64,000 nucleotides of DNA from a phage: NCBI GenBank assembly GCA_014437165.1, contig GCA_014437165.1_4090.3; one strand, written 5' to 3'. The notes beneath the pieces are model-generated. The model made no database searches. It saw only the letters and a list, made by a program, of their open reading frames with translations, and was not told where the DNA came from. The stretch's first letter is position 1, and each line of letters starts with the position of its first letter. The position numbers and the translations under genes were made by a program. Shown here piece by piece: positions 25,473 to 44,679 of this stretch.

Positions 25473-25719
25473 TACAGAGGGGATCAATTGGTCCCCTTTC
25501 TTTTTTCAGTACTGAATCATTTAATAGACGGATCTATGCACCCAGTGGGTTAGAGACTATCTCGTCTTTATGTAGTAATTATGCCAGTACTGGATGCAGT
25601 TGTCAACAATTATTTTTCAAATACTTTTATATTAAAGTACTTGCTATTAGTTTTTAAACGCGTATAATGTTTTACATCGAAAGGGGAAACGGTTCCCCTG
25701 GTAACTAAGGAATAAGAAA

Positions 25720-26357: not shown

Positions 26358-26386
26358 AGCCCACCTTAAACAGTGGGCTTTTTTGT
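26358..26386 (+). terminator. intrinsic terminator AGCCCACC-TTAAACA-GTGGGCT + TTTTTTG
   Basis: classic hairpin + T-run; identical copy at 27093. Confidence 0.8.
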
Positions 26387-27092: not shown

Positions 27093-27120
27093 AGCCCACC
27101 TTAAACAGTGGGCTTTTTTG
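27093..27120 (+). terminator. intrinsic terminator (identical to 26358-26386)
   Basis: hairpin + T-run. Confidence 0.8.
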
Positions 27121-29517: not shown

Positions 29518-29742
29518 ATGAAAAAAGTGGTTGACTTCGGTCAGCCATTTTGTTATTATATAATCATTGAGAGATAGCTCACTAGCCCACAGGGTGCAGG
29601 AGTGTATCTATTGTATAATGTTTGAGTACTGAAAACTATTTTAAAGTATTTGATAAAAAGTACTTGCAAACTATCTCAATAAGCGTATAATGTTTTACAT
29701 CGAAAGGGGAAACGGTTTCCCCTAGTAATAAGGAAACGAATC

Positions 29743-30084
29743 ATGACTATCTCAATTGCTCAATCTAACTTTGAAAACGAAATCATCGCCCAGGCACTGC
29801 GTTTAAATGATGGTCGGGCCGAAATCAATTACGGTTTCAATTCAGGCGGTTGTGAAAACTATCAGTACTTTGTAACGGCTGATGGCTGTGTCCTGGGCAT
29901 CAATACAGTTATTGTAAACATTCAGAAAATTAATTTCAATGATCCAGACGATAGCCAGTTTTACATTGTAGGCGTAGACGTGAATTATGAGGATGATTCA
30001 CTAACTGATGATCACACTGGCGAGAAGTTAGAAAGTGCATACGGTGAAGATGATTATCAGTCCGGTCCAGAAGATTTCGAATAA
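29743..30084 (+). CDS. hypothetical acidic protein (113 aa)
   Basis: cassette + SD AAGGAAA. Confidence 0.6.
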   Translation: MTISIAQSNFENEIIAQALRLNDGRAEINYGFNSGGCENYQYFVTADGCVLGINTVIVNIQKINFNDPDDSQFYIVGVDVNYEDDSLTDDHTGEKLESAYGEDDYQSGPEDFE

Positions 30085-30179
30085 TATAAAAAAAATAGTT
30101 TGACAATAGATTATAGTACTGTATAATAAGTTACATGAAGGGGAGAAATGATTCTCCCCACTAACAGAGAGAAAACAAA

Positions 30180-30392
30180 ATGGCTAATATCTGCACTGTA
30201 CTGAAAAATGCAAAACAAGTTTTATTTTCTGATCACGATCATTTAAACAAGGATATTACTGGCGTTCGGAATATCAAAGATGTAAAAAGTGTTATGGGTA
30301 TCTATTGCAATATGAAACGTGTTGGAACGTTCGGCGATAAAGTACTATACCAGGCAGGGGATTACAATTTTACACTGACTATTATTAACTAA
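30180..30392 (+). CDS. hypothetical protein (70 aa)
   Basis: cassette + SD. Confidence 0.55.
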   Translation: MANICTVLKNAKQVLFSDHDHLNKDITGVRNIKDVKSVMGIYCNMKRVGTFGDKVLYQAGDYNFTLTIIN

Positions 30393-30404
30393 AAAATATT
30401 ATCA

Positions 30405-30434
30405 CAGTACTATTGACACTGATTGATAGTACTG
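30405..30434 (+). promoter_or_regulatory. promoter with operator-like palindrome (copy 2)
   Basis: CAGTACTATTGACACTGATTGATAGTACTG then GCATAATA. Confidence 0.55.
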
Positions 30435-30475
30435 GCATAATAACTTTTATCAACTACACTACTAAGGAATTAAAA

Positions 30476-30655
30476 ATGGCTATCATCGCAAAAACTGAAA
30501 TCATCGGCCTGGATTCTATCATCATGTCGTTTGAAGATCAAAAAGGTATGTATGTAGTTTCCTATGGTGATTATGTTCGGGAGTATGAAACGGTAGACGA
30601 AGCCTTTGAAAGTTACATTCGCCAGGTGAATAAAGCATACGACGATTACCGCTAA
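30476..30655 (+). CDS. hypothetical protein (59 aa)
   Basis: ATG 30476 after SD AAGGAA. Confidence 0.5.
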   Translation: MAIIAKTEIIGLDSIIMSFEDQKGMYVVSYGDYVREYETVDEAFESYIRQVNKAYDDYR

Positions 30656-30754
30656 AATATATTACCAGTACTATTAAAGATATTGACAACGTTTGATAGT
30701 ACTGTATAATAAGTTTTATAAACAGTAGTTAACTTAACCTAAGAGAGAAACAAA

Positions 30755-30898
30755 ATGATCGCACTGGATTCATTCATCGACGCAGTACTGGCAAAAACTG
30801 GCGAGGATCTTACAGCAGAACAATACGCAATGATCGAGCAATGCCAGCAAGACGGTAAATCGGTGAAAGATACTGTTAAGATTATCCGCAAGATGTAA
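30755..30898 (+). CDS. hypothetical small protein (47 aa)
   Basis: SD AGAGAGAAA; followed by terminator 30905-30933. Confidence 0.45.
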   Translation: MIALDSFIDAVLAKTGEDLTAEQYAMIEQCQQDGKSVKDTVKIIRKM

Positions 30899-30904
30899 GA
30901 TTAT

Positions 30905-30933
30905 AGCCCACTGGTTAACGCTGGTGGGCTTTA
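30905..30933 (+). terminator. hairpin AGCCCACTGG..CTGGTGGGCT + TTTAATT
   Basis: stem-loop after stop. Confidence 0.5.
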
Positions 30934-31003
30934 ATTCATTACCCTATACAATGCCAGTACTAAACCGTTTATCTCGTTAGAATGCGTTACAGGACGTTTA
31001 ACA

Positions 31004-31201
31004 ATGATTAGCATGAAATCAGTACAAAAACAAATAGAAACATTATCAAAAATTAAACGTAAACAGTACTCCTTAGAATATACAATCAATGGTAACTATC
31101 ATCTAATGAAAGAGAATAATTTTATAGTCATTGATGAATCATTGCAAATCATTAGTATAGTACTGAAAGCATTAATCAATGACAGAAAAAAATTAAAATA
31201 A
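31004..31201 (+). CDS. hypothetical protein (65 aa)
   Basis: ORF with ATG start. Confidence 0.45.
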   Translation: MISMKSVQKQIETLSKIKRKQYSLEYTINGNYHLMKENNFIVIDESLQIISIVLKALINDRKKLK

Positions 31202-31532
31202 ACTATTGACAATATCATCAAGTACTGGCATAATACTTACATCAAGACGAGAACGTCACTAACCCATAGGGTGCACAAATGTAACTGTATAATATTGATC
31301 AAAAAATGATCTGATCAATACTTGATCAATTTGCGTAAAGTAGTATAATTCTATGCAGTTGGTTAGACGAAAGGTTATGATTAGTAGTGCAAGTGTATAA
31401 AAATTTTCATGGTGTATCGTTTCGCACATATGGGGATGAATATGTGGTATCATGTGGATTGGAAAAAGTAAGAACAAGTAATATTATTGTCGCATTACAG
31501 TACTATAGTATTTTTATAATGAGGTTAAAATA

Positions 31533-31790
31533 ATGGCTGTAGGATTCGCGAAAGATGGGGCCGAACAAGACGAGATTAACGCAGTGATTCAGGCCGCCGT
31601 TAACCACGCTAGAAAGCAAATTAACGCACAAATAGAATCACTGATACATTGCCTCGACTGCGGCGATATAATCCCTGAGAATCGACGCCAGGCCGTTAAG
31701 GGATGTAAGTACTGCATAACTTGCCAGGAGGATCATGATAGTACTTTTAAACGTCCCCCGCGTAATTGTTGGCATAGATCTATGAGATAA
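31533..31790 (+). CDS. DksA/TraR-family C4 zinc-finger protein
   Basis: C-x2-C-G-x2-I-P-x2-R-R-x-A…C-x2-C-Q pattern (CLDCGDIIPENRRQAVKGCKYCITCQ). Confidence 0.7.
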   Translation: MAVGFAKDGAEQDEINAVIQAAVNHARKQINAQIESLIHCLDCGDIIPENRRQAVKGCKYCITCQEDHDSTFKRPPRNCWHRSMR

Positions 31791-31853
31791 AAAGTATTGA
31801 CAGTACTGAAAGATAGTGTATAATATTTTATATCTTAACTGAGGATTGAAATC

Positions 31854-32210
31854 ATGGGAATACAACATATCACGCGTACTACTGACAATGGCGAGATCAC
31901 TGGCTATCAAGTACAGGGCAAAGTAGCACAATTGCAGTACTGGTTTGTTAAACGTGGAATCATTGCACCGGATCTTGATTATGACCGTGTAGCGTTTATT
32001 GATTCTCTTTATGTTGATCCTGATAGTCGGGGCAATGGTGAAGGTAACGAATTAATGAATGCCTTTATTGATGCCGCCGATGATTCAGATTGTATCATTT
32101 TAGAATGCGATACGGGAGAAGATAACGCCTTTAATCTTAAAGAATGGTACGAAGGTTTCGGATTCGAGGTACTGATCGATAGTGAATATCCTATCATGAT
32201 TTTATCATAG
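31854..32210 (+). CDS. probable small GNAT-fold acetyltransferase-like protein
   Basis: motif-A-like V.P..RG.G.G..L segment (YVDPDSRGNGEGNELMNAF). Confidence 0.45.
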   Translation: MGIQHITRTTDNGEITGYQVQGKVAQLQYWFVKRGIIAPDLDYDRVAFIDSLYVDPDSRGNGEGNELMNAFIDAADDSDCIILECDTGEDNAFNLKEWYEGFGFEVLIDSEYPIMILS

Positions 32211-32288
32211 TACTTGCATTTAGTTTTCAGTACTGTTATAGTACTTACATCAAGGGGAAACATCTTCCCCTACTAAGAGGAAATAAAA

Positions 32289-32477
32289 ATGGAAAACTTA
32301 TCAAGTATTTTAGTACAAGATGATTTCGGTAATCCTGGAAGTGCTATCATTGTTCGGGGTAATAAAGCAACGTTTGTTATTGCTGGTGGACCTGTACAGC
32401 GTAGCATTAAAAATAATGCTGTTACCATTAATAATGTACGCTATCGCTTAGATAAAGAATTGATTCATAAACTTTAA
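32289..32477 (+). CDS. hypothetical protein (62 aa)
   Basis: cassette + SD GAGGAAA. Confidence 0.55.
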   Translation: MENLSSILVQDDFGNPGSAIIVRGNKATFVIAGGPVQRSIKNNAVTINNVRYRLDKELIHKL

Positions 32478-32561
32478 AAAGTATTTGACAATAGATTATA
32501 GTACTGTATAATAAGTTACATGAAGGGGAGAAATGATTCTCCCCACTAAGAGGAAAGAAAA

Positions 32562-32774
32562 ATGCAAGGTCAACTAATCGTTCGTAAATGGTCTGATACT
32601 AACGAAAAACCGTGGGATGTACAATACATCGGACCGGATGGGGTATCACGTTATCAGCCTGGCGTAACGCATAGTACTGAGCAATTTGCCAACGCTCACC
32701 GCGAACGCCTGTTAGAATCCATGAAACAGGGATTCTGTGAAAAATTCATTCAAGATCATTGGCTGAAAGATTAA
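32562..32774 (+). CDS. hypothetical protein (70 aa)
   Basis: cassette + SD. Confidence 0.55.
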   Translation: MQGQLIVRKWSDTNEKPWDVQYIGPDGVSRYQPGVTHSTEQFANAHRERLLESMKQGFCEKFIQDHWLKD

Positions 32775-32791
32775 TATAAGGAGTACAGCTT

Positions 32792-32884
32792 ATGCAAATG
32801 AATCCGATGATTATTGTTTTAGCTGTACTTATGATCATTCATGCAATAGTAGAAGTATTAACGCAATCAGGAGTAATAAAATGA
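32792..32884 (+). CDS. hydrophobic micro-protein (30 aa, single TM)
   Basis: SD AAGGAG; MQMNPMIIVLAVLMIIHAIVEVL…. Confidence 0.4.
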   Translation: MQMNPMIIVLAVLMIIHAIVEVLTQSGVIK

Positions 32885-33054
32885 TCCAAGTAGAATTATC
32901 AGTACTGAAAGATCTGTTTTATCGGTTAGGTACTAATGGCGAGTATCCTAAAAGTGATACCGCAAAACTTTTTGTATCACTCGACTTATGGCAACGCGAA
33001 CAATTAGTAATGTCCTGGCGTAAAGGTAAAGAAGATAGCGAGGTGAAAGCATGA
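32881..33054 (+). CDS. hypothetical small protein (57 aa)
   Basis: ATGA coupling. Confidence 0.4.
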   Translation: MIQVELSVLKDLFYRLGTNGEYPKSDTAKLFVSLDLWQREQLVMSWRKGKEDSEVKA

Positions 33055-33200
33055 AAGAATTCTTATTCGAAGTAGTGTTTCAAGGTGTCGGTAGCAACCA
33101 ACTGATTCGCTCAAGTGGTTACAATGTTAACCAGGCATGGAATAACATTAAACAAATGTACCCGAACGCTATCACCTATCGCAACCCGAAACAAGTTTAA
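33051..33200 (+). CDS. hypothetical small protein (49 aa)
   Basis: ATGA coupling; followed by terminator/repeat element. Confidence 0.4.
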   Translation: MKEFLFEVVFQGVGSNQLIRSSGYNVNQAWNNIKQMYPNAITYRNPKQV

Positions 33201-33514
33201 AAATAATTGAAAAAGGGATTGACTCCGGTCAGTCCCTTTGCTATTATATACGCATAGAAACAAATCAGCCCACAGGGTGCATAAATGTATCTATTGTTTG
33301 CTGGTGGCTAGTACTGAAAACTATTTTTAAAAAGTACTTGCATTGTACTTAGAATCAAGTATAATATTTTACATCAGGACGGGGAACGAAACAAGTAACC
33401 CCGTTAAGTAGTCCAGGAGTAAGACATAAGAAAACCTCCCCTGATAAAATAGTTTGACAATAGAAAGTAAACGAGTATAATACTTACATCAACCACTGAT
33501 AAGGAAACATTAAA

Positions 33515-33790
33515 ATGCGGATTCTACTGACAGCTAACGAAATCGAACAAGTACTGACTACTAACCTGGAAGACTGGAAACGTGAAGCAGATATCCAGGC
33601 GGTTCAATGGCTTAACGATAAGTTAACGCCGGATGACTTAAGCAAGATTGTAGATCCTCAATTCTACGAAGATATTCACGACACCGCGTTAAGCGTCGAG
33701 GATGTACTTGATAAGCACTACATTGATATTGATTTGCAGGTTTACGGTCGTAAAAACTTTATCACTATTCACGACATTTACAATAATTAA
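33515..33790 (+). CDS. hypothetical acidic protein (91 aa)
   Basis: preceded by structured leader repeat 33371-33490. Confidence 0.6.
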   Translation: MRILLTANEIEQVLTTNLEDWKREADIQAVQWLNDKLTPDDLSKIVDPQFYEDIHDTALSVEDVLDKHYIDIDLQVYGRKNFITIHDIYNN

Positions 33791-33851
33791 GTATTGACAA
33801 AGTATCTTAGTACTGTATAATAGTTTACATCTTAATTAAAAAGGAAACATC

Positions 33852-33986
33852 ATGAAAGCGAACAAAGCAGCAAAGAAACAAACCAATCCCCTGGCTGGCT
33901 GGAAGTTAGATTTATCCGATGAAGTAGTTTGCACAAATAAGAATGTAGTTGAAGCTGAAAAGAAATTACGAAAAGAAAACAAATAA
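33852..33986 (+). CDS. hypothetical small basic protein (44 aa)
   Basis: promoter + SD AAGGAAA. Confidence 0.4.
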   Translation: MKANKAAKKQTNPLAGWKLDLSDEVVCTNKNVVEAEKKLRKENK

Positions 33987-34071
33987 GTATTGACAAAGTA
34001 TCTTAGTACTGTATAATAGTTTACATCAAGGGGGGAATGGTTCCCCTCCTAACAAAGAGAGAGAAATAAAA

Positions 34072-34254
34072 ATGGCTAAGTGCACTATCTGCAAGAAAGA
34101 AATAGTATTAGTTCCAAGTGCCCGTGAACGTGCCGCTCGGTTCGGTGGCAAAGCGTCAGACTATACAAAAATGTTTACTACCCATGCAGCTTGCCAGGTA
34201 GCAAAACGTTCACAAGAAAGCGTAGAATTAATGCGTAAACTTTCCAAAAAATAA
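34072..34254 (+). CDS. hypothetical protein (60 aa)
   Basis: cassette + SD. Confidence 0.5.
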   Translation: MAKCTICKKEIVLVPSARERAARFGGKASDYTKMFTTHAACQVAKRSQESVELMRKLSKK

Positions 34255-34343
34255 GTATTGACAAAGTATCTTAGTACTGTATAATAGTTTACATCAAGCG
34301 AGGGGAATGGTTCCCCTCCTAACTAAAAGAGAGAGAAATAAAA

Positions 34344-34667
34344 ATGGCTATGATCCTTACCCAGAAAGTAGAACTGAAAATTGTAACCTCCTTTGACATT
34401 AAAGTTAATCGCTGGACTGATCGGAACGGTAACACTTACCACTCTTGCTACGTGTCCGCGTTAATTGGCGACCGCTGGGAAGACTTGGGACATGAAACCT
34501 TTACTTACGGTTACGGTACACAAGGAGAATACACGGGCTTGGAGATCATTAAAGAAACCGTTATAGGTTTCAACCCGAAAGAAAAAGTTATTCACCGCAT
34601 CGAAAAAGAGATTAACAAAGAAATAACAGTTCGCTACTACGATGTAAAACGTAAGAAAGACATGTAA
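34344..34667 (+). CDS. hypothetical protein; paralog of 27976-28299
   Basis: shared motifs. Confidence 0.65.
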   Translation: MAMILTQKVELKIVTSFDIKVNRWTDRNGNTYHSCYVSALIGDRWEDLGHETFTYGYGTQGEYTGLEIIKETVIGFNPKEKVIHRIEKEINKEITVRYYDVKRKKDM

Positions 34668-34762
34668 TAGAATCCATTTAAAGTACTATTTGACATTGCC
34701 CAGATAGTACTTTATAATAGACTCTAACTTGTAGTACTAACTCAACTAATAGGATGTATACC

Positions 34763-35158
34763 ATGATTACTAAATTCTACGCTACCCGTGAAGCTGCCCG
34801 TATTGTTGCACGCGAGGAAGGAGCAGCATTTAAAGACATGGGCAAAGATGCACCGAAAGGTCAACGCTGGGCCGTACAGTTCAAAGAAATCTCTGATATC
34901 GTGAATTCACCGGAGCCAGTACTAACAGCAGCAGAACTAAAACGAGCGGATTTACTGGCGGCAGTACTTAACGCACAAGATGAATTTATCGCTGATTCTG
35001 ATATCAAAGTACAGACAAACCATACCGCTTGGACTCACGCGGATCACCTGGCAAACCTTAAGCGTCCAAGTGAACTGGTTCGCAACCAGAAAGAGATCCG
35101 ACACGACCGTAAGGGTAATCGTGTAACAGTATACAGTAAACGCCGCCAGGTTATCTAA
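34763..35158 (+). CDS. hypothetical protein; paralog of 22284-22550
   Basis: F.TRE.ARI.AR..GA.FKDMG…HDRKGNRVTVYS shared. Confidence 0.6.
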   Translation: MITKFYATREAARIVAREEGAAFKDMGKDAPKGQRWAVQFKEISDIVNSPEPVLTAAELKRADLLAAVLNAQDEFIADSDIKVQTNHTAWTHADHLANLKRPSELVRNQKEIRHDRKGNRVTVYSKRRQVI

Positions 35159-35180
35159 TAACTTGCAGTACTAACAACAC

Positions 35181-35205
35181 GGCGGGATCAGTTCCCGCCT
35201 TTTTT
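35181..35205 (+). terminator. intrinsic terminator GGCGGGATCAGTTCCCGCC + TTTTTT
   Basis: hairpin + T-run. Confidence 0.7.
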
Positions 35206-35220
35206 ATAGGATAAACTAAA

Positions 35221-35475
35221 ATGATTAAGGTACAACTATCTAAAGATAATATCTTGCGGGTACACTATAAAGCACCACAGAGAATCATCACAAAGGCCGT
35301 ACAGCTTGCTAATGAGTTTATTAATGGTAACCTATTACCAAGGAAGTTAAGCAACGGAAAACTGCGTGTAATCGATGTAGACACTAACAACAGAATAGTA
35401 ATTGAGAACACAGGAAAGATAAACCTATATGAACACCAACAATATAATAAGAAAATAAAACTAATATCACGTTGA
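35221..35475 (+). CDS. hypothetical protein (84 aa)
   Basis: SD AGGATAAA. Confidence 0.55.
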   Translation: MIKVQLSKDNILRVHYKAPQRIITKAVQLANEFINGNLLPRKLSNGKLRVIDVDTNNRIVIENTGKINLYEHQQYNKKIKLISR

Positions 35476-35528
35476 CAGTACTCAATTGTTTTAGTATTAT
35501 GTACACATACCAACACGGGAGAAACAAA

Positions 35529-35747
35529 ATGAAATTATCTAAAATCGAAAAGAAAACTATTGATGAAGCAGTTAAGCACGGTTATACCTTTCGTAATGAT
35601 TCACATTTTACCAATTTTCAACAAGGCCAAAGGACTATTAAAAAACTAATTGACAAAGGTTTATTAGTTAAAGTAGATAACGGTAACGGCATTGAGTATC
35701 AGCCAACCCAAGACGCATTATCTTTAAAGAAATATGCAATTATCTAA
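35529..35747 (+). CDS. hypothetical protein; paralog of 35805-36047
   Basis: identical promoter/leader sequence; ATG after GGGAGAAA. Confidence 0.55.
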   Translation: MKLSKIEKKTIDEAVKHGYTFRNDSHFTNFQQGQRTIKKLIDKGLLVKVDNGNGIEYQPTQDALSLKKYAII

Positions 35748-35804
35748 TTGACAGTACTCAAATGTTTTAGTACTATATGTACATACCAACACGGGGAAAA
35801 CAAA

Positions 35805-36047
35805 ATGATTACTTTAGAAAAACGTATCAAAGAAACTACATCGCTGGTGGAACTGTTAACAGTACTGAAATGCCGTACTACTCGGTTTAGTACACCGGAC
35901 TTTATTAATATGGTTGATGTTAACGGTCGTTATCGCATTGCAGTAGAACAAGGAACAGCGAAAGTATTCAGTACTAAAAACACTAAGGAAGTGATTCACG
36001 CTGTAAGTGTTAAAAAAGTAGTTGCCATTGATAGTAAAGTACTGTAA
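35805..36047 (+). CDS. hypothetical protein; paralog of 35529-35747
   Basis: duplicated promoter TTGACAGTACTCAAtTGTTTTAGTA-TAT…. Confidence 0.55.
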   Translation: MITLEKRIKETTSLVELLTVLKCRTTRFSTPDFINMVDVNGRYRIAVEQGTAKVFSTKNTKEVIHAVSVKKVVAIDSKVL

Positions 36048-36078
36048 GATAGTTTCATTAACTCAAGGAGAACATGCA

Positions 36079-36663
36079 ATGCGTAATTATACTAAATTCA
36101 TCCGTACCCTGTCAGAAATGGAAACCAACAAAGAGATCCTTTCAGCTTGTCGGTTAGCTGGTCTGGAGATCATCGGTGCGGGTTCTTCCCGTATTGTATT
36201 CGCTTTAAATGATCGGTTAGTGATCAAGGTCGCGAATTGTGATGCGGGTGTAGAACAAAATGAAACTGAATGTAAGGTATGGAATTTTTTAGATTATGAC
36301 CGCCCTCAATTGAAACAGTACTTTGCAAAGGTGCATATGCATTTATGCGATCCTGATAATATGTTTATCGTTATGGATCGGTTGAGTACTGCAAGTAAAG
36401 GCAGTGTAAAGCACGTAAACGCGTGCAATGAATTAAAGTACAATATTAAACGTAATGCCATTGAACGCCAGCACCGCTTTGCTGATGCACTACAACACGT
36501 TGATGATACATTATCAACACTAACGATAAGAGATATCAGAAAACAGAATATCGGCCAGGATCGTAATGGCCTTATTAAAGTACTTGATTACGGTTTAACC
36601 CGCAATATCTGGAATCAGTACTATAAAAAGCGTGATGTAGAAGCAAGTAAGGTAACACGATAA
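36079..36663 (+). CDS. minimal protein-kinase-like protein
   Basis: G-loop IGAGSSRIVF, LVIKVA lysine, catalytic-loop-like IRDIRKQNIG, DFG-like KVLDYG; SD AAGGAGA. Confidence 0.6.
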   Translation: MRNYTKFIRTLSEMETNKEILSACRLAGLEIIGAGSSRIVFALNDRLVIKVANCDAGVEQNETECKVWNFLDYDRPQLKQYFAKVHMHLCDPDNMFIVMDRLSTASKGSVKHVNACNELKYNIKRNAIERQHRFADALQHVDDTLSTLTIRDIRKQNIGQDRNGLIKVLDYGLTRNIWNQYYKKRDVEASKVTR

Positions 36664-36884
36664 AAAAGATTAAAAAAGGGATTGACTCCGGTCAGTCCCT
36701 TTGCTATTATATATTCATTGAGAGATAACTCACTGACCCATAGGGTGCGGAAGTGTATCTATTATATAAGTATTCAGTACTGAAAACTATTTGATAAAAA
36801 GTACTTGCATTGTACTTAGAATCAAGTATAATGTTTTACATAGAGAGGGGGAAATGGTTCTCCCTGGTAATAAGGAATAAAATC

Positions 36885-37106
36885 ATGACTACAATGACTT
36901 GCATTTACGCTTCCAATCTTCTGAATGATGCGGCCTTTAATGTTGATTCAGAATATCAATGTTATCGGGATGAAAATAAAAAAGTTTTTGTAGTTGATAA
37001 TAATGGTTTCCATATTGAATTACAATCCGGTTTCACTGGTGTTGATGGTAAATCAGTGTGGGGCGTACAGGATGATAAAGGCACATATCATTTTAAACGT
37101 AATTAA
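36885..37106 (+). CDS. hypothetical protein (73 aa)
   Basis: ATG 36885 after SD AAGGAA. Confidence 0.55.
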   Translation: MTTMTCIYASNLLNDAAFNVDSEYQCYRDENKKVFVVDNNGFHIELQSGFTGVDGKSVWGVQDDKGTYHFKRN

Positions 37107-37189
37107 GTATTGACAAAGTATATCAGTACTGTATAATAGTTTACATCAAGGGGAGAATAGTTCTCCCCAATACAATAAGGAATAAAATC

Positions 37190-37597
37190 ATGTCTACTAC
37201 TACTAATCTCGCTCGGAACATCACTAACGATAAAAATCATGCTGCAATGGTTGTAGCTTACATTGAAGCTATGCAATTCAGTACTGTACATAATGATAAC
37301 GGCGATTACCTGGAAGATTATGAGTTATCTGATGAAGCACGTCAAGCGGCGGTGATTGCATGTTCTCGCTTCATTGAGAAACACGGTAATGATCTGGAAG
37401 TAGTTCGCGGTATGTTTATTGATTACGGTTATGAGCAAGCTGGTCATGATCTGTTCCTTACCCGCGAAGGTCACGGAACTGGTTTTTGGGATCGTGGTTT
37501 AGGTCACTATGGCGATGTATTCACGAAGTACTGCGAAGAAATCAACGTTTGCGATCCCTATGTAGGCGATGATAATCTAATCTATATGGGCGAATAA
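37190..37597 (+). CDS. hypothetical protein (135 aa)
   Basis: cassette + SD. Confidence 0.6.
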   Translation: MSTTTNLARNITNDKNHAAMVVAYIEAMQFSTVHNDNGDYLEDYELSDEARQAAVIACSRFIEKHGNDLEVVRGMFIDYGYEQAGHDLFLTREGHGTGFWDRGLGHYGDVFTKYCEEINVCDPYVGDDNLIYMGE

Positions 37598-37684
37598 AAG
37601 TATTTGACAAAGTATATCAGTACTGTATAATAGTTTACATCAAGGGGAGAATAGTTCTCCCCGATACTAAAAGGAAACAAAATT

Positions 37685-37957
37685 ATGTCTAGTTACTCCG
37701 CTACTATGATCATTAAAGATATGAACGGTAATCCTACTTCTGCTGGTGGATCATTTGGAAACATTAATTTAGATGGTCGGTTATCCATGCAATCAGCCAT
37801 CGATGCAGCGAAAGAAGTTTTTAAGAATGAATGTACTGTTAGTAAGCTGGATTATATGGGATTCGCTATCGAGAAAACTAATCGTTTTGTGAACTACAAA
37901 AATCCACTGATGATTGATACTAACCTGAAAGCTAACGAAGTGGGGTACTTATTATGA
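37685..37957 (+). CDS. hypothetical protein (90 aa)
   Basis: cassette + SD. Confidence 0.6.
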   Translation: MSSYSATMIIKDMNGNPTSAGGSFGNINLDGRLSMQSAIDAAKEVFKNECTVSKLDYMGFAIEKTNRFVNYKNPLMIDTNLKANEVGYLL

Positions 37958-38145
37958 CAGTAGAAGAAGTTAAAAAAGTACTGGCAGTACTACGCTATCA
38001 TAATCATTGCAAGGTGAAGAATGATCCTGATTATGTTGATTCATCCCTGGAGGAAGACACATTAAACGCAATAAGCCATATGCAAACATTAGCAAAGCGT
38101 ATGACCGAAAAGAATAGACCGGACTATATCGGAAATAAAATTTAA
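37954..38145 (+). CDS. hypothetical protein (63 aa)
   Basis: ATGA coupling. Confidence 0.5.
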   Translation: MTVEEVKKVLAVLRYHNHCKVKNDPDYVDSSLEEDTLNAISHMQTLAKRMTEKNRPDYIGNKI

Positions 38146-38231
38146 AAAGTACTTGCATTGTAGTTAGATTAACGTATAATGTTTTACATAGAGCGGGGGA
38201 ATAGTTCTCCCGCCAGTCCAGGAGATACACC

Positions 38232-38495
38232 ATGAACACTATCGAAATCACTATCAATGCACACGTATACGACAACGTAGTACTGCAAACTACTATGACC
38301 GCTAATGATACCAGTACTTTGCGGAATACCGTTGTAAGTGCTGTATGTGCTGCAATCGGTGATGTAGCCCTGGAAAATGCAGAACACATCAACAACGGTT
38401 TCACTATGTGCAAACGTGATAACGCAAAACATATCATCTTAGAAGGTTACGGCGGTGTAGAATATAACCTTTATATGAAAAAAGTACTTGCATAA
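38232..38495 (+). CDS. hypothetical protein (87 aa)
   Basis: cassette + SD CAGGAGA. Confidence 0.55.
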   Translation: MNTIEITINAHVYDNVVLQTTMTANDTSTLRNTVVSAVCAAIGDVALENAEHINNGFTMCKRDNAKHIILEGYGGVEYNLYMKKVLA

Positions 38496-38562
38496 TAACT
38501 AAAACAAAGTATAATGTTTTGCATAGGGGGAGATATCCTCCCCCACTAAAAGGAGTAATAAA

Positions 38563-38787
38563 ATGGCTAACTTTGATGAACTAATGCGGGAAGTAGCTAA
38601 CCTGGCAGAAGAGAAGAAATCATTCGATTCTATCTATAACACCGCTCATCGTGATTCAGTACTGGCATGTACTCAGGATCAAAAAGATGAACTGATCGCC
38701 ACCTACCATGAAGCGTGGCAGTACTACCGCCAATGGGAGAAAGAAGAAAGTGAGTCTACCATTGACGGCCTCAATAATCTAATCTAA
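38563..38787 (+). CDS. hypothetical acidic protein (74 aa)
   Basis: cassette + SD AAGGAG. Confidence 0.6.
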   Translation: MANFDELMREVANLAEEKKSFDSIYNTAHRDSVLACTQDQKDELIATYHEAWQYYRQWEKEESESTIDGLNNLI

Positions 38788-38798
38788 AAGTTTTATTT

Positions 38799-38828
38799 CA
38801 GTACTATTGACATAGCTTGATAGTACTG
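38799..38828 (+). promoter_or_regulatory. promoter with operator-like palindrome (copy 3)
   Basis: CAGTACTATTGACATAGCTTGATAGTACTG. Confidence 0.55.
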
Positions 38829-38863
38829 ATGTAATAACTTTACTAACTACAAGGGGAAACATA

Positions 38864-39121
38864 ATGGAACAGTTCACACAATATCGGGTAAATCCTCAAG
38901 CTATGGCCTACGTAGAAGACCATAAAACGTTACCAGTACTAACACCAATTAAAGGCCATATCTATCGTGCAATGTCATGGAATACGGCCCAGGATGGATA
39001 TACTACCGCTGGCGTGGGTATGTATTGCGGGAATGGTGAATGGTTTGATCCAAATAATCCGGTAGCCATTGACAGTACTGAAAAAATGAAATGGGCCGAC
39101 TACATCGAAGATATTTCATAA
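38864..39121 (+). CDS. hypothetical protein (85 aa)
   Basis: SD AAGGGGAAA. Confidence 0.55.
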   Translation: MEQFTQYRVNPQAMAYVEDHKTLPVLTPIKGHIYRAMSWNTAQDGYTTAGVGMYCGNGEWFDPNNPVAIDSTEKMKWADYIEDIS

Positions 39122-39210
39122 AACTATTTGACAGTACTAACCAGTAATGTATAATGTTTTACATAGAGCGGGGGAATAGTTCTCCCGCCAATAGTTTGGA
39201 GTAAAACATT

Positions 39211-39411
39211 ATGTCTATCGCTATCGCCCTGGTTGAAGTACTGAAAGAAGCTAAAGCCAACCAGATCGACGTAAAGATCCAGGAACTACAAAACGGCTTA
39301 ATCGGCTGTACTTGTACCGCTGGTGGAGCGGCAGACTATCGAGAACACGAATCACTCGAATCACTGGTTCGGTATCTTACCATGATCGTTGATGATTGGA
39401 GAATCATCTAA
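39211..39411 (+). CDS. hypothetical protein (66 aa)
   Basis: cassette + SD. Confidence 0.55.
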   Translation: MSIAIALVEVLKEAKANQIDVKIQELQNGLIGCTCTAGGAADYREHESLESLVRYLTMIVDDWRII

Positions 39412-39657
39412 CAAAAAAGAATAAAAAAAGGAGTTGACTTCGGTCCGCTCCTTTAGTACTATATACGCATAGACAAAAACTAGCCCACAGGGTGCATAGG
39501 TGTATCTAAAATATATAGTTAATAACGGTGAGTAACTATCTGCTGGTGGAACTAAAACTATTAATAAAAAAAGTATTGACAAAGTATATCAGTACTGCGA
39601 TAATGTATCTCGTAGGGCGGCAATGGTGCGACGGCCCACAAAGTTAGGAGATTCAAA

Positions 39658-39990
39658 ATGAGTACTTCAATCGCTATCGTTAAAGCTTTCATCCGTACCA
39701 ATGTTTCATCTGTATTCATCGACGGTCTGGATCGGGAAGTAGAATACTCAATCATTATCGCACAGACTGCAAACGGTGCTCGGTATATCCTTAATGATAG
39801 TGAAGCAAATCACTACTACTTCACTAAAGCTACTGGCTTTAAACGCATCGATGCTGACGTAGTATACGCTAAGATGAATAAGCTGGTAGACAAGATTAAC
39901 GCGAAAGGTACTATCGATTTACAGTACTGGACCGAAACCGATCCAGAATATGGATCTCACCGCTACCTGAATCCAGGTATTAAAATGTAA
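39658..39990 (+). CDS. hypothetical protein (110 aa)
   Basis: SD TAGGAGA. Confidence 0.6.
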   Translation: MSTSIAIVKAFIRTNVSSVFIDGLDREVEYSIIIAQTANGARYILNDSEANHYYFTKATGFKRIDADVVYAKMNKLVDKINAKGTIDLQYWTETDPEYGSHRYLNPGIKM

Positions 39991-40079
39991 AAAGTACTTG
40001 CATAGTACTTAGAATCAAGTATAATGTTTTACATAGAGAGGGGGAAATGGTTCTCCCTCCTAAATTAAGGAGTTTTATC

Positions 40080-40481
40080 ATGACCTTCTCAATCAATTCC
40101 TTCGCTGACGTTTTAGTACTGGCTCGGACTTTTGGTAAAGATGCACTGGAGTACGCTGTAAGTAATGGTACTATCCAACCGGAACAGTGCCGCATCATTG
40201 GAAACTGCAAACGTTGGGCGGTATCCAATACTATTGCACTGGAAAACTTCCACGATGGCAACAATGAATATTCTGTTGATGTAGTATTCGAAGCCGTTGA
40301 TCTCGGCGGTATCTATAATACTAACCTGAATGATGTGCGTATCGTTCGCACGGGGTTCGGTGCTTATGATGTATCTATTCGTGAAGCTATGAACACCGGA
40401 TACATTAGCAAGGACTTACTTGCTCACATCATGCAGCTGTGTACGGAACGTAACGAAGCACGCACTATCTTAGGACTGTAA
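40080..40481 (+). CDS. hypothetical protein (133 aa)
   Basis: ATG 40080 after SD AAGGAG. Confidence 0.6.
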   Translation: MTFSINSFADVLVLARTFGKDALEYAVSNGTIQPEQCRIIGNCKRWAVSNTIALENFHDGNNEYSVDVVFEAVDLGGIYNTNLNDVRIVRTGFGAYDVSIREAMNTGYISKDLLAHIMQLCTERNEARTILGL

Positions 40482-40549
40482 GCGTTACACATCACCAAAC
40501 ATCATAGGCCGCCTTGTAGCGGCCTTAACTATATCAGGAGTACATACAT

Positions 40550-40759
40550 ATGTTCTATACAGTATACAGCGTCCTAGGCACTATTGCAGGCGTACATGAT
40601 AACGTCAATGATGCTATGCGTACAGTACTGCAACAGGTTCCACTAAAGCCTAAGACCATTAAGCAGATGACAGCACGACTAACCAGGGCGACCGATGGCG
40701 TGGAAGTATGGCAGGACTACGGGGATACACAGATAATCGTTAGCGTAACGAAGGATTAA
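40550..40759 (+). CDS. hypothetical protein (69 aa)
   Basis: SD CAGGAG. Confidence 0.55.
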   Translation: MFYTVYSVLGTIAGVHDNVNDAMRTVLQQVPLKPKTIKQMTARLTRATDGVEVWQDYGDTQIIVSVTKD

Positions 40760-40788
40760 TGCGTAAAGGGATCTAGTACTGATTCAGA

Positions 40789-40953
40789 AAAAAGTCAAGG
40801 CGTTTTTAAAATTATGCGTTAAAAAAATGCATAGGTAATCCCTTGACTTTTTTGAAATAAAAGGGATTGGACTATGGCAAAATGCGTAGGGGGCTAAAGG
40901 GCGGGTAACCTTAGCGACTTCGAAAAAAGGAGTGATAGGGGCTTGACTTTTTA
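40789..40953. repeat. boundary element: 12-bp inverted repeat AAAAAGTCAAGG / CCTTGACTTTTT plus third CTTGACTTTTT copy
   Basis: read directly in gene-free 280-bp segment. Confidence 0.5.
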
Positions 40954-41042
40954 TATAATTCTGATAATATATAGTCTATATTATATTTCATTCATATTTT
41001 ATATGTTAGTTACATTAACTCAACATTAGAGGTCACAGAACT

Positions 41043-41408
41043 ATGAATCCATCATCTAATAAATGTGGTACTTCCTTTAATGTAGAATGGTTATTTTTTA
41101 AACCCACATCTACTATAAAATCATTCATTGCTGATATCACTGAAGCACCTGACACCCTTGTATCAGTTGTTAACAACAATAACGAAATGGTATTTTCTAT
41201 TGATGAAAATCAATATGCAGATATCTATTCATTGAGTCGTATAAAAAACTTAGTTGTACTGTCCGAGAAAGCGTTCGCAAAAGAAGCGAAGAAATGGGAT
41301 TTTAAACTTCCTATTGAATTGGTACGTGAAATACAAAAATTGGGATGTACTACTATTGAGAATTGTAAAGACTCACGTGCTACTGGGAATATTTCATTTG
41401 AAGTATAA
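41043..41408 (+). CDS. hypothetical protein (121 aa)
   Basis: SD AGAGG. Confidence 0.55.
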   Translation: MNPSSNKCGTSFNVEWLFFKPTSTIKSFIADITEAPDTLVSVVNNNNEMVFSIDENQYADIYSLSRIKNLVVLSEKAFAKEAKKWDFKLPIELVREIQKLGCTTIENCKDSRATGNISFEV

Positions 41409-41431
41409 TGCATTTATATGAACAAAACATC

Positions 41432-41460
41432 TTGACATCATGCCTCACATGGGGTATGAT
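41432..41460 (+). promoter_or_regulatory. sigma70-type promoter TTGACA-17-TATGAT heading the family B array
   Basis: hexamers at 41432-41437 and 41455-41460. Confidence 0.55.
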
Positions 41461-41494
41461 GTTTTTTCACATATGAACCTATGGATTTTATCCT

Positions 41495-41692
41495 ATGCGT
41501 ATTTTAACTAAAGAACAGCACCACGAAAGACTTATCAATAACATGGCTATGATAATGTATAAGTCCCATGACCGTGGTATTGCCTATAAGCGTGAATTAA
41601 TTATGGCACTATTCATTGGAACTAACTTTCAGGAAAGGTATGTCAACGATTGGATTTGGTATTTAATTGAAGATATAACGAGTAAACTATGA
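41495..41692 (+). CDS. family B small protein (LGTNYQ core)
   Basis: …FIGTNFQERYVNDWIWYLIEDITSKL. Confidence 0.65.
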   Translation: MRILTKEQHHERLINNMAMIMYKSHDRGIAYKRELIMALFIGTNFQERYVNDWIWYLIEDITSKL

Positions 41693-41889
41693 AAAAGCGT
41701 ATTTTAAATAAAGAAGAATATCAATCACTGTTACGTAAAAACTTCACAAAGATTTATAATACAGACACACACGTAGAACGAATGGAGTTATACATTTTGA
41801 TTACATTGGGAACAAACTATCAGGGTAGATGGGTGTGGCAATATATGGACTCCTTAAAAAATGAAATATTGTCCAAGAGGAAACAATGA
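41689..41889 (+). CDS. family B small protein
   Basis: ATGA overlap; …LGTNYQGRWV…LKNEILSKR. Confidence 0.65.
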   Translation: MKKRILNKEEYQSLLRKNFTKIYNTDTHVERMELYILITLGTNYQGRWVWQYMDSLKNEILSKRKQ

Positions 41890-42095
41890 AAACTATAACA
41901 CGAACCCAATCATACGGTCTTATCTTGAAATACATGGACTTAATGGTGGATATCAGCAAAGACCTTCCTAAAACTGAAATTGAAGTTGCAAGAGCAGAGA
42001 TCCGCATGTTGGCTGTACTGAACACAAACCATCAGGAAGATTATGTTGAAGAATGGATTCGATTTTTAATAGAAGATATAAAGAGTAAACTATGA
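41886..42095 (+). CDS. family B small protein
   Basis: ATGA overlap; …NTNHQEDYVEEWIRFLIEDIKSKL. Confidence 0.65.
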   Translation: MKTITRTQSYGLILKYMDLMVDISKDLPKTEIEVARAEIRMLAVLNTNHQEDYVEEWIRFLIEDIKSKL

Positions 42096-42307
42096 TTATT
42101 ATAGAAAACTCATATCAATATACTGAACGCATCGCTGCCAGACAACTTGAAATCCTCATAATATACGAAGAGACTTCTGATTTAAACTTAGCCGAGGTAT
42201 TGGAAAATGATATACTATTGGGTGCATTCTTAGGAACAGACTATCAGAAGTATTATGAGGAAAAGTATTTGTCATCTCTTGAGAAATATATCAGGAGCAA
42301 ATTATGA
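42092..42307 (+). CDS. family B small protein
   Basis: coupled; LGTDYQKYY. Confidence 0.65.
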   Translation: MIIIENSYQYTERIAARQLEILIIYEETSDLNLAEVLENDILLGAFLGTDYQKYYEEKYLSSLEKYIRSKL

Positions 42308-42516
42308 TTTTTTTAACACCAGAAGAATATAAGAAACGTTTCAATTCCGCACAGGGTGAAATCTTACTTATATACCTTTCAAATGCAGACCTTAACTTAT
42401 CAAGGGTATTAGAAAAAGATTTACTTATGGGTGCATTCCTTGATACAGACTTTCAGGTGTATTATGTAGGGGAATACTTAATTGCACTTCAGAATTATAT
42501 CAGGAGTAAACTATGA
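42304..42516 (+). CDS. family B small protein
   Basis: coupled; near-duplicate of previous. Confidence 0.65.
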   Translation: MIFLTPEEYKKRFNSAQGEILLIYLSNADLNLSRVLEKDLLMGAFLDTDFQVYYVGEYLIALQNYIRSKL

Positions 42517-42740
42517 AACATTTAAGTAACTCCGAGAAGAATAAAATTATCATAGCTGCAATAAACAAATATTTTACACTTCCTCACAAAGAAGGTTTAT
42601 GTGTAAGGGAACACAGGATAAACACCACCGATAAACGCATGATGGCTGTACTGGGGACGAACTTCCAGGAAGAGTATGTTATTGCACACATAGTTGCACT
42701 CAAGAATTACATTATGGACAAATGTAATGAACATCATTAA
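42513..42740 (+). CDS. family B small protein
   Basis: LGTNFQEEYV…HIVALKNYIMDKC. Confidence 0.65.
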   Translation: MKHLSNSEKNKIIIAAINKYFTLPHKEGLCVREHRINTTDKRMMAVLGTNFQEEYVIAHIVALKNYIMDKCNEHH

Positions 42741-42951
42741 TAACTTTGAATACGAGGCCCGTGCTAAGAGTGCCAGAAAAAAAGAGAACACCATTTACTT
42801 CACTATGATGTACTTACAATGGACTGAAATTGAAGAAAAGGTTGCTGAAGTATGGATGTTGGAATTCATGGGGACGCAGTATCAGAATAGGTTTGCGGGT
42901 GAGTATATCAATGTTCTTATGAAACAAATAGAAAGAAAGGAAAAGAACTAA
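42727..42951 (+). CDS. family B small protein
   Basis: ATG 42727 (Met12 of track ORF); MGTQYQNRF. Confidence 0.6.
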   Translation: MNIINNFEYEARAKSARKKENTIYFTMMYLQWTEIEEKVAEVWMLEFMGTQYQNRFAGEYINVLMKQIERKEKN

Positions 42952-43109
42952 TGGTTTTCATTAACATATCTGACCAACTCGATACTAAACTAGAAGTCGA
43001 GCAGAGTGAGGGATGGATGCTGTACTTTCTTGGAACTTCTCATCAAAATTTTTATATCCATGAACACATAGTTGCACTCAAGAATTACATTATGGACAAA
43101 TGCAAATGA
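42951..43109 (+). CDS. family B small protein (52 aa; below track cutoff)
   Basis: TAATG junction; …LGTSHQNFYIHEHIVALKNYIMDKCK. Confidence 0.5.
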   Translation: MVFINISDQLDTKLEVEQSEGWMLYFLGTSHQNFYIHEHIVALKNYIMDKCK

Positions 43110-43363
43110 AATACTTAACACAAGATGAATATTCACTTAGAATTCGAAAGCTCACCCCAGAAGCAAGAGTAATCTACGATGACCCCACCCTTACATGGAA
43201 CCAAATGCGAGCTAAAGTTAATGAGCTATGGTTGCTGTACTTTATGGGGACTCAATATCAAGATAAGTTTTGCAAAGAATTTGTCGATCAATTAATGAAT
43301 GTTATACAGGATAAACTAGATGAATATTGGCTCGCAAAACATGAAGACTTTATCAGGAGTTGA
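43100..43363 (+). CDS. family B small protein
   Basis: MGTQYQDKF. Confidence 0.65.
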   Translation: MQMKYLTQDEYSLRIRKLTPEARVIYDDPTLTWNQMRAKVNELWLLYFMGTQYQDKFCKEFVDQLMNVIQDKLDEYWLAKHEDFIRS

Positions 43364-43592
43364 GTATCAAACTGCCCTCTTCTCTCTTATTAACACCCTT
43401 AGAAAAAACAATGCATTACATGGTGCACCTGAAGTGGATGTTATCAACGGTGATGTTTATCTTATGAAATTCATTGGAACAAACTATCAAGATCTGTTCA
43501 TTCAACGATACTTGGCAGCATTAAGAAACCAAATCCAATATAAAACCCAGAGAGCCAAAAAAGAATGGAATAAACAATGCGACAAAGACTAA
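43320..43592 (+). CDS. family B small protein
   Basis: IGTNYQDLF; alternative start 43341. Confidence 0.6.
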   Translation: MNIGSQNMKTLSGVEYQTALFSLINTLRKNNALHGAPEVDVINGDVYLMKFIGTNYQDLFIQRYLAALRNQIQYKTQRAKKEWNKQCDKD

Positions 43593-44678: not shown

Positions 44679-44679
44679 C

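Follow-up and report, generated by a model that had tools for sequence, protein, structure and literature searches.

A composite terminator–promoter repeat carrying a predicted structured RNA module in the terminal repeat of a Rak2-like jumbo coliphage

The DNA examined here is a 64,000-nucleotide stretch of a phage contig (GCA_014437165.1_4090.3), hereafter "the window", and the element in question is a composite repeat of ~85 bp made up of two parts: a ~45-nt cassette in which a hairpin overlaps a promoter and a ~47-nt module that is predicted to be transcribed from that promoter. The repeat is real, non-random and conserved across a clade of jumbo phages; its second part is apparently an undescribed structured RNA element, fused to a cassette of a known kind, the PeSL.

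Megablast searches with the region 29–40 kb retrieve jumbo coliphages of the PBECO4/121Q/G17 type with 92–98% identity over up to 86% of the query and, judging from this similarity, the window derives from an Asteriusvirus-type (PBECO4/121Q/G17-like) jumbo coliphage whose relatives have genomes of ~350 kb. Nucleotide 1 of phage fEgEco12, which has a direct terminal repeat of 20,993 bp defined by PhageTerm and confirmed by restriction digestion (PMC13070987), aligns by blastn at window position 19,815 and the end of its repeat at ~40,911. This terminal repeat of the window is dense in small plus-strand genes, most of which are equipped with a strong sigma-70 promoter cassette, a hairpin in the 5′-untranslated region (5′-UTR) and a ribosome-binding site (RBS). 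The features relevant to the composite repeat are the following, with promoters given as −35 box, spacer length in bp and −10 box.

19,815 to ~40,911, no strand: direct terminal repeat (early region), containing all copies (blastn to fEgEco12)
20888–20970, minus: module (20888–20935) and promoter TTGCTT-16-TATAAT (20943–20970)
21103–21185, minus: diverged module (26.2 bits) and promoter TTGACT-16-TATAAT, facing a degenerate plus-strand copy at ~21045–21075
22898–22978, plus: promoter TTGACT-17-CATAAT and module, plus member of a convergent pair
22994–23070, minus: module and promoter TTGACA-17-TATAAT (12/12), minus member of the convergent pair
25476–25606, minus: small-RNA-like unit with promoter TTGACA-17-CATAAT (25578–25606), module (25523–25570) and bidirectional hairpin (25476–25499)
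29524–29551, plus: composite copy 1, terminator-like hairpin AAAGTGGTTGAC-TTCG-GTCAGCCATTTT with the −35 box inside (hairpin scan)
29531–29559, plus: copy 1, embedded sigma-70 promoter TTGACT-17-TATTAT with TG extension (promoter scan)
29565–29612, plus: copy 1, predicted RNA module, hairpin SL1 UGAG-AGAUAG-CUCA, then CUAG and CCCACAGGGUGCAGGAGUGUAUCUAUU (58.3 bits)
31206–31289, plus: stand-alone promoter TTGACA-17-CATAAT and module (SL1 GACG-AGAA-CGUC), no upstream terminator hairpin
33212–33239, plus: composite copy 2, terminator-like hairpin AAAGGGATTGAC-TCCG-GTCAGTCCCTTT (scan; annotated terminator in phage G17)
33219–33247, plus: copy 2, embedded promoter TTGACT-17-TATTAT (promoter scan)
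33253–33295, plus: copy 2, predicted RNA module of the weak-SL1 subtype (AUAGAAACAAAU), Chi site directly 3′ (covariance model)
36675–36702, plus: composite copy 3, terminator-like hairpin (hairpin scan)
36682–36710, plus: copy 3, embedded promoter TTGACT-17-TATTAT (promoter scan)
36716–36763, plus: copy 3, predicted RNA module, top-scoring copy (65.9 bits)
39430–39462, plus: composite copy 4, imperfect hairpin GGAGTTGAC-TTCG-GTCCGCTCC and promoter TTGACT-17-TACTAT (sequence, promoter match)
39468–39510, plus: copy 4, predicted RNA module of the weak-SL1 subtype, Chi site 32 nt downstream (covariance model)

The four composite copies were found where an initial annotation of the window had placed them. 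The conserved 26-mer on which that annotation focused corresponds to the stretch from CCCA through UCUA of the module and is far from a chance occurrence: a strict pattern gives six matches with up to three mismatches (0.00 expected, from 100 shuffles), and half-patterns give eight or nine matches against ~0.3 expected and recover all nine reported 26-mer sites, including those said to stand alone (~22952 and ~31262) or in reverse orientation (~20900, ~22998 and ~25537). A covariance model finds ten copies between 20,888 and 39,510, all within the terminal repeat, and none in the 43 kb of the window outside it. One of the ten (21103–21150, minus strand, 26.2 bits) had escaped the initial annotation, and its degenerate plus-strand partner at ~21045–21075 was seen by eye. 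The modules of the convergent pair 22898–22978/22994–23070 are separated by 16 nt, the copy at 20888–20970 lies ~1.1 kb inside the left boundary of the terminal repeat, and the bidirectional hairpin at 25476–25499 has a poor U-tail on the minus strand.

The position of the 26-mer with respect to the promoters is the first element that bears on its nature. In seven genomes with 75 copies in all, 70 modules are preceded by a sigma-70 match of 9/12 or better, the −10 box ends 5–7 nt before the module in 71 (exactly 5 nt in 55) and the module begins with CA or TA in 74. All ten window copies have a near-consensus host promoter upstream, on their own strand and at this same distance, and a consensus scan lists module promoters and hairpins independently. 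Because the −10 box lies at a fixed distance before the module, the predicted first nucleotide of the RNA is a conserved A located 7 nt past the −10 box, and the 26-mer would then be transcribed sequence, spanning approximately +21 to +46. The embedded promoter that the initial annotation had recognized is thus borne out as a sigma-70 promoter (TTGACT-17-TATTAT in the scan). On the other hand, the copies that it described as the 26-mer alone do exist but are not naked, each being preceded by a sigma-70-type promoter of its own at the fixed distance; similarly, its view that the motif is not simply an early promoter holds for the 26-mer, but not for the reason given, namely the reverse copies, since each of these has its own minus-strand promoter. 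The sites are therefore tied to predicted transcription starts and, furthermore, are conserved in at least six phage genera, two properties whose absence, according to the same annotation, would have marked a passive repeat.

The promoters of the modules differ from those of the neighboring genes, the former having a 17-bp spacer, a TG extension and a non-consensus −10 box. The gene promoter cassettes constitute a second repeat family with 24 copies between 21874 and 40056 (e.g., 36797–36863), laid out as an A-tract, AAAAAGTACTTGCA/TTGACA, a 16-bp spacer, TATAAT, a transcript start ACAU..., a 5′-UTR hairpin GGGGAGAAAUGGUUCUCCCC, an RBS and ATG. The element at 20750–20790 (AGTTCCCCTACCGCGTGGGGATGGTTTCCCC), whose ends AGTTCCCC...GGGGAT recall the E. 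coli type I-E CRISPR repeat, is more likely a member of the GGGGA-N-TCCCC family of 5′-UTR hairpins than a CRISPR-repeat-like element.

The second element that bears on the nature of the 26-mer is the way in which the module varies. The module is ordered as a hairpin (SL1), an invariant stretch U-R-R-CCCA-Y-N and a G·U-rich hairpin, GGGUGCR/loop/UGUAUCU, its 3′ part reading GGGUGC...UGUAUCUA. The 26-mer is accordingly distinct, conserved and not due to chance, as the initial annotation maintained, but it is only the 3′ two-thirds of a unit of ~47–48 nt that begins with a covarying hairpin. SL1 lies 4 nt before CCC and usually has a stem of 4 bp closed by a purine-rich loop of 6 nt (GAGAAA, GCGAAA or AGAUAA); an explicit hairpin search, independent of any model, finds 28 distinct stems. 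In the 111 matches that a covariance model, built from 16 gap-free copies, detects in the window and in nine related terminal repeats, all four SL1 pairs vary on both sides (e.g., GC 37, CG 33, AU 5, GU 2), with 94.9% of the cells paired and a covariation score of 0.417, compared with 0.178 for shuffled sequences (none of 500 shuffles reaches the observed value) and with 0.077 at best for slid partners. The 5′ strand of the 3′ hairpin does not vary, whereas the 3′ strand changes almost exclusively between U and C or A and G, so that pairing is kept: G·U occurs 66–68 times vs 15–20 for G-C, and U-A 65 times vs 26 for U·G, with 89.6% of the cells paired. Since this pattern is strand-specific, it argues for RNA over duplex DNA. 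Phages of Klebsiella, Cronobacter, Pectobacterium and Escherichia have retained identical SL1 subtypes, such as UGGCAGAUAAGCCG.

Different SL1 subtypes may also occupy one orthologous site, which in the window (22944–22978) reads AUUG-AAACGAA-CAAU and in fEgEco12 (3177–3223) UGGC-AGAUAA-GCCG; the swap points to exchange between copies of the module or to gene conversion among them.

In its first ~45 nt the composite repeat is, judging from its design, a PeSL, i.e., one of the composite terminator/early-promoter cassettes described in T4-like phages by Arbiol et al. 2010 (PMC2839356) and Comeau et al. 2014 (PMC4122927). The nt-1-type consensus of these elements consists of A3-4 G3-loop-C3 T3-4 and TTGYVH-N17-TAWWAT (PMC4122927). 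As in the PeSLs, an A-run, a G3-4...C3-4 hairpin and Ts are combined here with a near-consensus sigma-70 early promoter whose TATTAT follows 17 bp on, and the elements sit between small early genes. The first ~40–47 nt of a K64-1 element, used as blastn query, are 85–87% identical to nt-1, KVP40 and relatives, nt-1 reading aaaaGGGTTGACacatGTCAGCCCtttttgTATTAT, with the same design GGG-TTGAC-loop-GTCAG-CCC/TATTAT and the −35 box inside the hairpin. Stem-loop and promoter overlap in composite copies 1, 2 and 3, as the coordinates given above indicate, and the −35 box falls within a perfect hairpin in 38 of the 51 plus-strand copies across the clade. The hairpin also has the properties of a rho-independent terminator, insofar as its 12-pair stem, tetraloop and tail GCTATTATAT pass the scan, with a U-tract that is short and interrupted, and the orthologous hairpins of phage G17 carry an ARNold terminator annotation. 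The terminator-like character implied by the initial annotation is thereby upheld, but not the single hairpin consensus that it proposed, in that copy 1 reads GTGGTTGAC-TTCG-GTCAGCCA and the hairpin of copy 4 is imperfect.

The similarity to the PeSLs ends with the promoter. In nt-1 and the T4-like phages the promoter runs directly into a Shine-Dalgarno (SD) sequence and ATG, whereas here it runs into the 47-nt module, and only after a second, stronger gene promoter, 16–63 nt later, do a 5′-UTR hairpin, an RBS and ATG follow. Unlike the PeSLs, furthermore, the module is also found behind ordinary, hairpin-less promoters and on the opposite strand, and the elements are restricted to the direct terminal repeat. 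As to indel or replacement boundaries between closely related genomes, at which a PeSL would be expected to sit, alignments between the window and fEgEco12 show several breaks within the terminal repeat, none coinciding exactly with a composite copy, and one orthologous site carries different SL1 types.

Two identical terminator hairpins, AGCCCACCTTAAACAGTGGGCT plus a T-run, are found 735 bp apart at 26358–26379 and 27093–27114; they carry neither an embedded promoter nor a module.

The module is present in 8–13 copies per repeat in K64-1/RaK2, Kae01/Munch, GAP32, CBB, Serratia phage BF, Erwinia phage SNUABM_47 and Yersinia phage fHe-Yen9-03, the hosts of the Rak2-like carriers being Escherichia, Klebsiella, Salmonella, Cronobacter, Pectobacterium, Serratia, Erwinia and Yersinia. 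In the whole genome of the close relative EC22.5-2 (351,992 bp) nine copies with E ≤ 0.004 and a weak one with E 0.67 all lie at 30,829–49,627, inside the equivalent of the repeat (29,754–51,028), and none occurs in the remaining 330 kb; in Kae01 and CBB, the repeats of which are annotated, the copies are likewise confined to the repeat. Among 2.9 million IMG/VR contigs, pattern matches were obtained only with the public Rak2-like genomes and with two other contigs of ~360 kb and four shorter ones; according to the model, three of these six contigs contain multiple strong copies and three contain single weak matches (24.7 bits). The 27 exact-pattern matches in 185,579 bacterial and archaeal species genomes, none of them in Enterobacterales, approximate the number that we estimate for chance and score at most 25 bits, as opposed to 30–66 bits for most phage copies, and a blastn search of 5,426 E. 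coli genomes with the module gave no match. Against Rfam, the whole window yields nothing at the gathering threshold and the 20–41 kb region nothing that overlaps the copies at E ≤ 5. The motif is not mentioned in the publications on CBB, fEgEco12 or phAPEC6.

Three genomic settings can be distinguished across the clade. In the first, represented by 32 plus-strand copies, the promoter of the next gene follows 16–63 nt after the module with no terminator before it, the composite repeat with its promoter-bearing hairpin being the commonest plus-strand form. In the second, eight minus-strand copies lie between two plus-strand genes and are followed 21–25 nt after the module by a terminator, giving units of ~100 nt; such a unit is syntenic in GAP32, CBB, BF, the Erwinia phage and Yen9-03. 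In the third, copies are arranged in 13 convergent pairs with gaps of 16, 27 or 34 nt between the modules, every genus having one such pair ~1 kb from the left end of its genome; the transcripts of the pairs are predicted to fold into long, near-perfect hairpins (z −3.6 to −5.3). The attributes of a stand-alone small RNA gene are found in the minus-strand class only, for instance at 25476–25606 (minus) in the window and at 10935–11041 (minus) in Kae01, and are lacking in the four composite copies.

Taken together, these data are best accounted for by a two-part early cassette whose module acts in trans as an immediate-early small or leader RNA, made by the host polymerase and amplified in dosage, a reading to which we assign a probability of roughly 0.6. 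The hairpin would end the upstream early gene, and the −35 box (TTGACT) of a host sigma-70 promoter would lie within its stem and loop; the −10 box TATTAT would follow 17 bp later and the ~47-nt module would be transcribed from this promoter, so that transcription of the units by the host polymerase could begin immediately upon entry of the terminal repeat into the cell. The functional form would be RNA, as opposed to DNA, and would consist of the 5′-terminal SL1, the single-stranded URR-CCCA-YN and the G·U-rich hairpin, with the possibility that GGG pairs with CCC instead. The invariant URR-CCCA-YN and GGGUGC between the two hairpins may provide the recognition surface for a protein or RNA partner, and the modules might thus make up a family of trans-acting small RNAs, functioning as regulators or decoys; a read-through transcript from a composite copy would have the module as its 5′ leader. 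A trans-acting family is favored because the unit exists in multiple copies, and does so in both terminal repeats, because one third of the copies are stand-alone units that point against the genes and because their spacing to the terminator is conserved.

Several observations weigh against this proposal. For the four composite copies, which lack a terminator ahead of the next promoter, a role as a cis-acting leader is at least as natural as one in trans, and neither a binding partner nor a target of the module has been identified. Single modules are little more stable than shuffled sequences (z −2.1 to +0.6) and, because their folding only marginally surpasses that of the shuffles, the structural claim rests on covariation; in turn, the alignment from which the pairs were counted was fitted to the model and hence favors the structure, a bias that the independent hairpin search offsets only in part. 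The CCC/GGG pairing, which is invariant and is all that MAFFT plus RNAalifold returns from unanchored sequences, competes with the lower part of the 3′ hairpin, whose C33-G40 pair is broken in 36 of 93 copies. Among close relatives, moreover, the module is conserved at 92.2% and its flanks at 92–94%. Finally, the literature searches brought up no paper on transcripts, small RNAs or this motif for Asteriusvirus, Alcyoneusvirus or Rak2-like phages and, as no transcriptome was found for the Rak2-like clade, the starts, the ends and the abundance of the module are predictions.

A bolder extension of the same proposal, which we regard as speculative and rather unlikely, is that the modules represent a new class of immediate-early noncoding RNA, common to all Rak2-like jumbo phages of Enterobacterales, that is made at high dose from both repeats during the first minutes of infection and directly reprograms or disarms a conserved host machine. 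The RNA could possibly be put-like and, independently of any protein, render the host RNA polymerase resistant to termination; equally possibly, it could act as a decoy and titrate a host RNA-binding factor or a defense nuclease.

Minus-strand copies combine, within a total of ~100 nt, a promoter of their own, a conserved 5′ domain, a spacer rich in A/U and a rho-independent terminator and, with several paralogues per genome, resemble the Hfq-type and multi-copy "sibling" small RNAs. They belong, however, to a family in which most plus-strand copies are terminator-less and would run into mRNA, in which U-tails are often interrupted and for which, unlike the Hfq-type small RNAs, no target complementarity was found. 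REP/REPIN elements are likewise short and structured and occur also as inverted doublets with fixed spacing that form long hairpins; the present units differ from these in carrying a promoter at fixed distance and in being restricted to a single 21-kb phage region, and we know of no RAYT-type transposase alongside them, none having been looked for.

The principal rival of a trans-acting RNA, unlikely in our estimation, is that the module is a cis-acting leader, i.e., a nut-, put- or ops-like nascent-RNA signal for processive antitermination or programmed pausing, by virtue of which polymerases starting at the terminator-embedded promoters would read through the downstream early terminators while those starting at ordinary promoters would not. 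The module is indeed always promoter-proximal, at a fixed distance; the composite copies are situated exactly at terminators, with genes next and no terminator before the following promoter, as in all 32 plus-strand copies so placed, within an early region that both the scan and the G17 annotation show to be terminator-dense. The architecture of the module, a small hairpin with a purine-rich, GNRA-like loop beside an invariant linear element, can be likened to the boxB–boxA order of rrn and to boxB plus the linear box of lambda. As with lambda nut and HK022 put, the element is predicted to be transcribed just 3′ of early promoters and occurs in both orientations, each copy with its own promoter. 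The sequences, however, are not similar: inspection of 94 distinct aligned copies reveals no boxA-like (CGCUCUUA-like) stretch, the SL1 hexaloop is only loosely boxB-like, Rfam yields nothing even at E ≤ 5 and an N protein was not searched for. A processive signal would hardly need 8–13 copies per 20 kb, compared with two in lambda or HK022, and about one third of the copies oppose the genes and encounter a terminator 21–25 nt on or a facing copy only 16 nt away, a layout ill-suited to antitermination; a cis-acting signal thus suits the composite copies well, but the antisense and convergent ones badly.

It could also be that the composite is a passive or selfish repeat, a PeSL-like recombination cassette homogenized between copies, with the 26-mer as a hitch-hiking leader. 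That its first part is a PeSL speaks for this, as PeSLs have been proposed to shuffle genes by recombination (PMC4122927), and so do the differing SL1 types at the orthologous site 22944/3177, which point to exchange between copies, the within-genus conservation of the module, no better than that of its flanks, and the nt-1 PeSL leader, which resembles the weak-SL1 subtype up to the start of the module. Yet CCCA and GGGUG are almost invariant across genera in which the surrounding genes can barely be aligned, the variation keeps the pairing, the same SL1 subtypes (UGGCAGAUAAGCCG) are retained in phages of several host genera and the spacings to promoter, terminator and partner copy are fixed, whereas T4-type PeSLs manage without any module; we therefore consider this explanation improbable.

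Still poorer are the prospects of a DNA-level site, i.e., of the double-stranded 26-mer serving as an operator, a roadblock, a Tus/Ter-like fork barrier or, as the initial annotation suggested, a protein-binding or site-specific recombination site. The invariance of CCCA and GGGTGC is what sequence-specific recognition would require, the location just 3′ of promoters suits an operator or roadblock and the copies are confined to the terminal repeat; TGTA(A/T)CTA is also loosely similar to the GTTGTAACTA core of the E. coli Ter sites, a likeness presumably coincidental. But the motif is non-palindromic and its orientation always follows the strand of the promoter, the upstream hairpin covaries fully, which would not be expected of a DNA operator, and positions 41–45 change almost only by transitions that follow an RNA helix (G·U to G-C, U-A to U·G) on one strand.

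That the 26-mer is a promoter for a phage polymerase or sigma factor, the leading idea of the initial annotation, is hardly credible: although it is a well-conserved motif of ~25 bp and a sigma-like factor is encoded by these phages, as reported for CBB (PMC5259590) and phAPEC6 (PMC7247149), every copy lies in predicted transcribed sequence, ~20–27 nt 3′ of a near-consensus host promoter on its own strand, transcription initiated at minus-strand copies would meet a terminator after 24 nt or run into another copy, plus-strand copies precede a separate strong gene promoter, the motif is absent upstream of middle and late genes in 330 kb of EC22.5-2, and its internal variable block and pairing-keeping changes are unlike those of a two-box promoter.

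Some further candidates were rejected. A mini-open reading frame (SD-like GGGUG, NUG, stop in UAU CUA), modeled on the lambda bar minigenes, displays no codon-position pattern and loses its start codon in 36 of 93 copies; a pseudoknot of the SL1 loop AGAUA with UAUCU is possible in one subtype only and is not general; known small ribozymes (pistol, twister, hammerhead) and leaders are unsupported, with no Rfam match at the copies. A scan for tRNA and transfer-messenger RNA (tmRNA) found none. Likenesses to PK1 of tmRNA, to the RNase P RNA (CCAUAGGG...GGGUGCC), to Tus/Ter and to type I-E and I-F CRISPR repeats were judged coincidental. With respect to an RNA anti-CRISPR (a solitary mimic of a CRISPR repeat), for which the I-E and I-F repeats alone were compared, the CCC-AYA-GGG hairpin is shorter than the I-F stem and otherwise dissimilar.

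Rak2-like jumbo phages (PBECO4, 121Q, RaK2, K64-1, GAP32, CBB) are in development for therapy; to our knowledge, their regulation is wholly uncharacterized, as are over 80% of their genes. The present analysis offers a testable map of the earliest transcription units in the ~21-kb terminal repeat, evidence that the T4-type PeSL cassettes reach into the distant Rak2-like clade and a candidate new RNA family, absent from Rfam, that has 8–13 copies per repeat and is strictly conserved throughout the clade. Should the RNA prove to modify the host polymerase or to neutralize a host factor, a new mechanism of take-over would be at hand; otherwise the cassette would still be a compact natural terminator-promoter-leader part of potential use in engineering.

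Concerning the terminal repeat as such, both boundaries of one copy (19815 and ~40911) are inside the window. The 20 kb to the left of 19,815 are outside the repeat and presumably represent unique sequence from the right end of the genome, while the sequence past ~41.5 kb aligns to fEgEco12 just beyond its left repeat. Because a single repeat copy is flanked by right-end sequence and by sequence that follows the left repeat, the source assembly is circularly joined or collapsed at the terminal repeat.

Chi sites (GCTGGTGG) are strongly enriched and strand-biased in the terminal repeat, with ten plus-strand sites inside 19,815–40,911 and one outside, the expectation being ~0.2 for both strands together. 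They are found at 20391–20410, 21250, 27201, 30920, 32382, 33300, 35843, 37742, 39319 and 39542, and ~580 bp from the left end of the repeat they form an inverted pair, CCACCAGC-ttgt-GCTGGTGG. In EC22.5-2, nine of the 16 plus-strand Chi sites fall within its 21-kb repeat. This enrichment suggests a protection of the linear genome ends from RecBCD.

Approximately 19 head-to-tail units of 8 bp (CTAGAYGG, CTGGATGG or CTAAACGG) are arrayed at 20564–20712, 750–900 bp from the left end of the terminal repeat and inside a non-coding stretch of 1.6 kb; they could be a protein-binding array for packaging, end recognition or the control of injection.

The palindrome AGTACT, often in the form CAGTACTG, occurs 265 times in the 64 kb of the window (~21 expected) and 919 times in the 352-kb relative. 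Its typical locations are the promoter spacer just 5′ of the −10 box, a position ~60 bp upstream of promoters and the stems of terminators (examples at 20153–20163, 20190–20200 and 33311–33318), and it may be the binding site of a regulator or the trace of a modification or restriction-avoidance system.

Outside the terminal repeat, ~11 paralogous minus-strand open reading frames of ~250–440 amino acids follow one another with a period of ~1.2 kb between 4346 and 15962; their ends are conserved and the intergenic hairpins have stems of the CCAGTACTGG type. Two more tandem families of paralogous small genes are located just past the terminal repeat, at 41387–47569 and 58363–61368.

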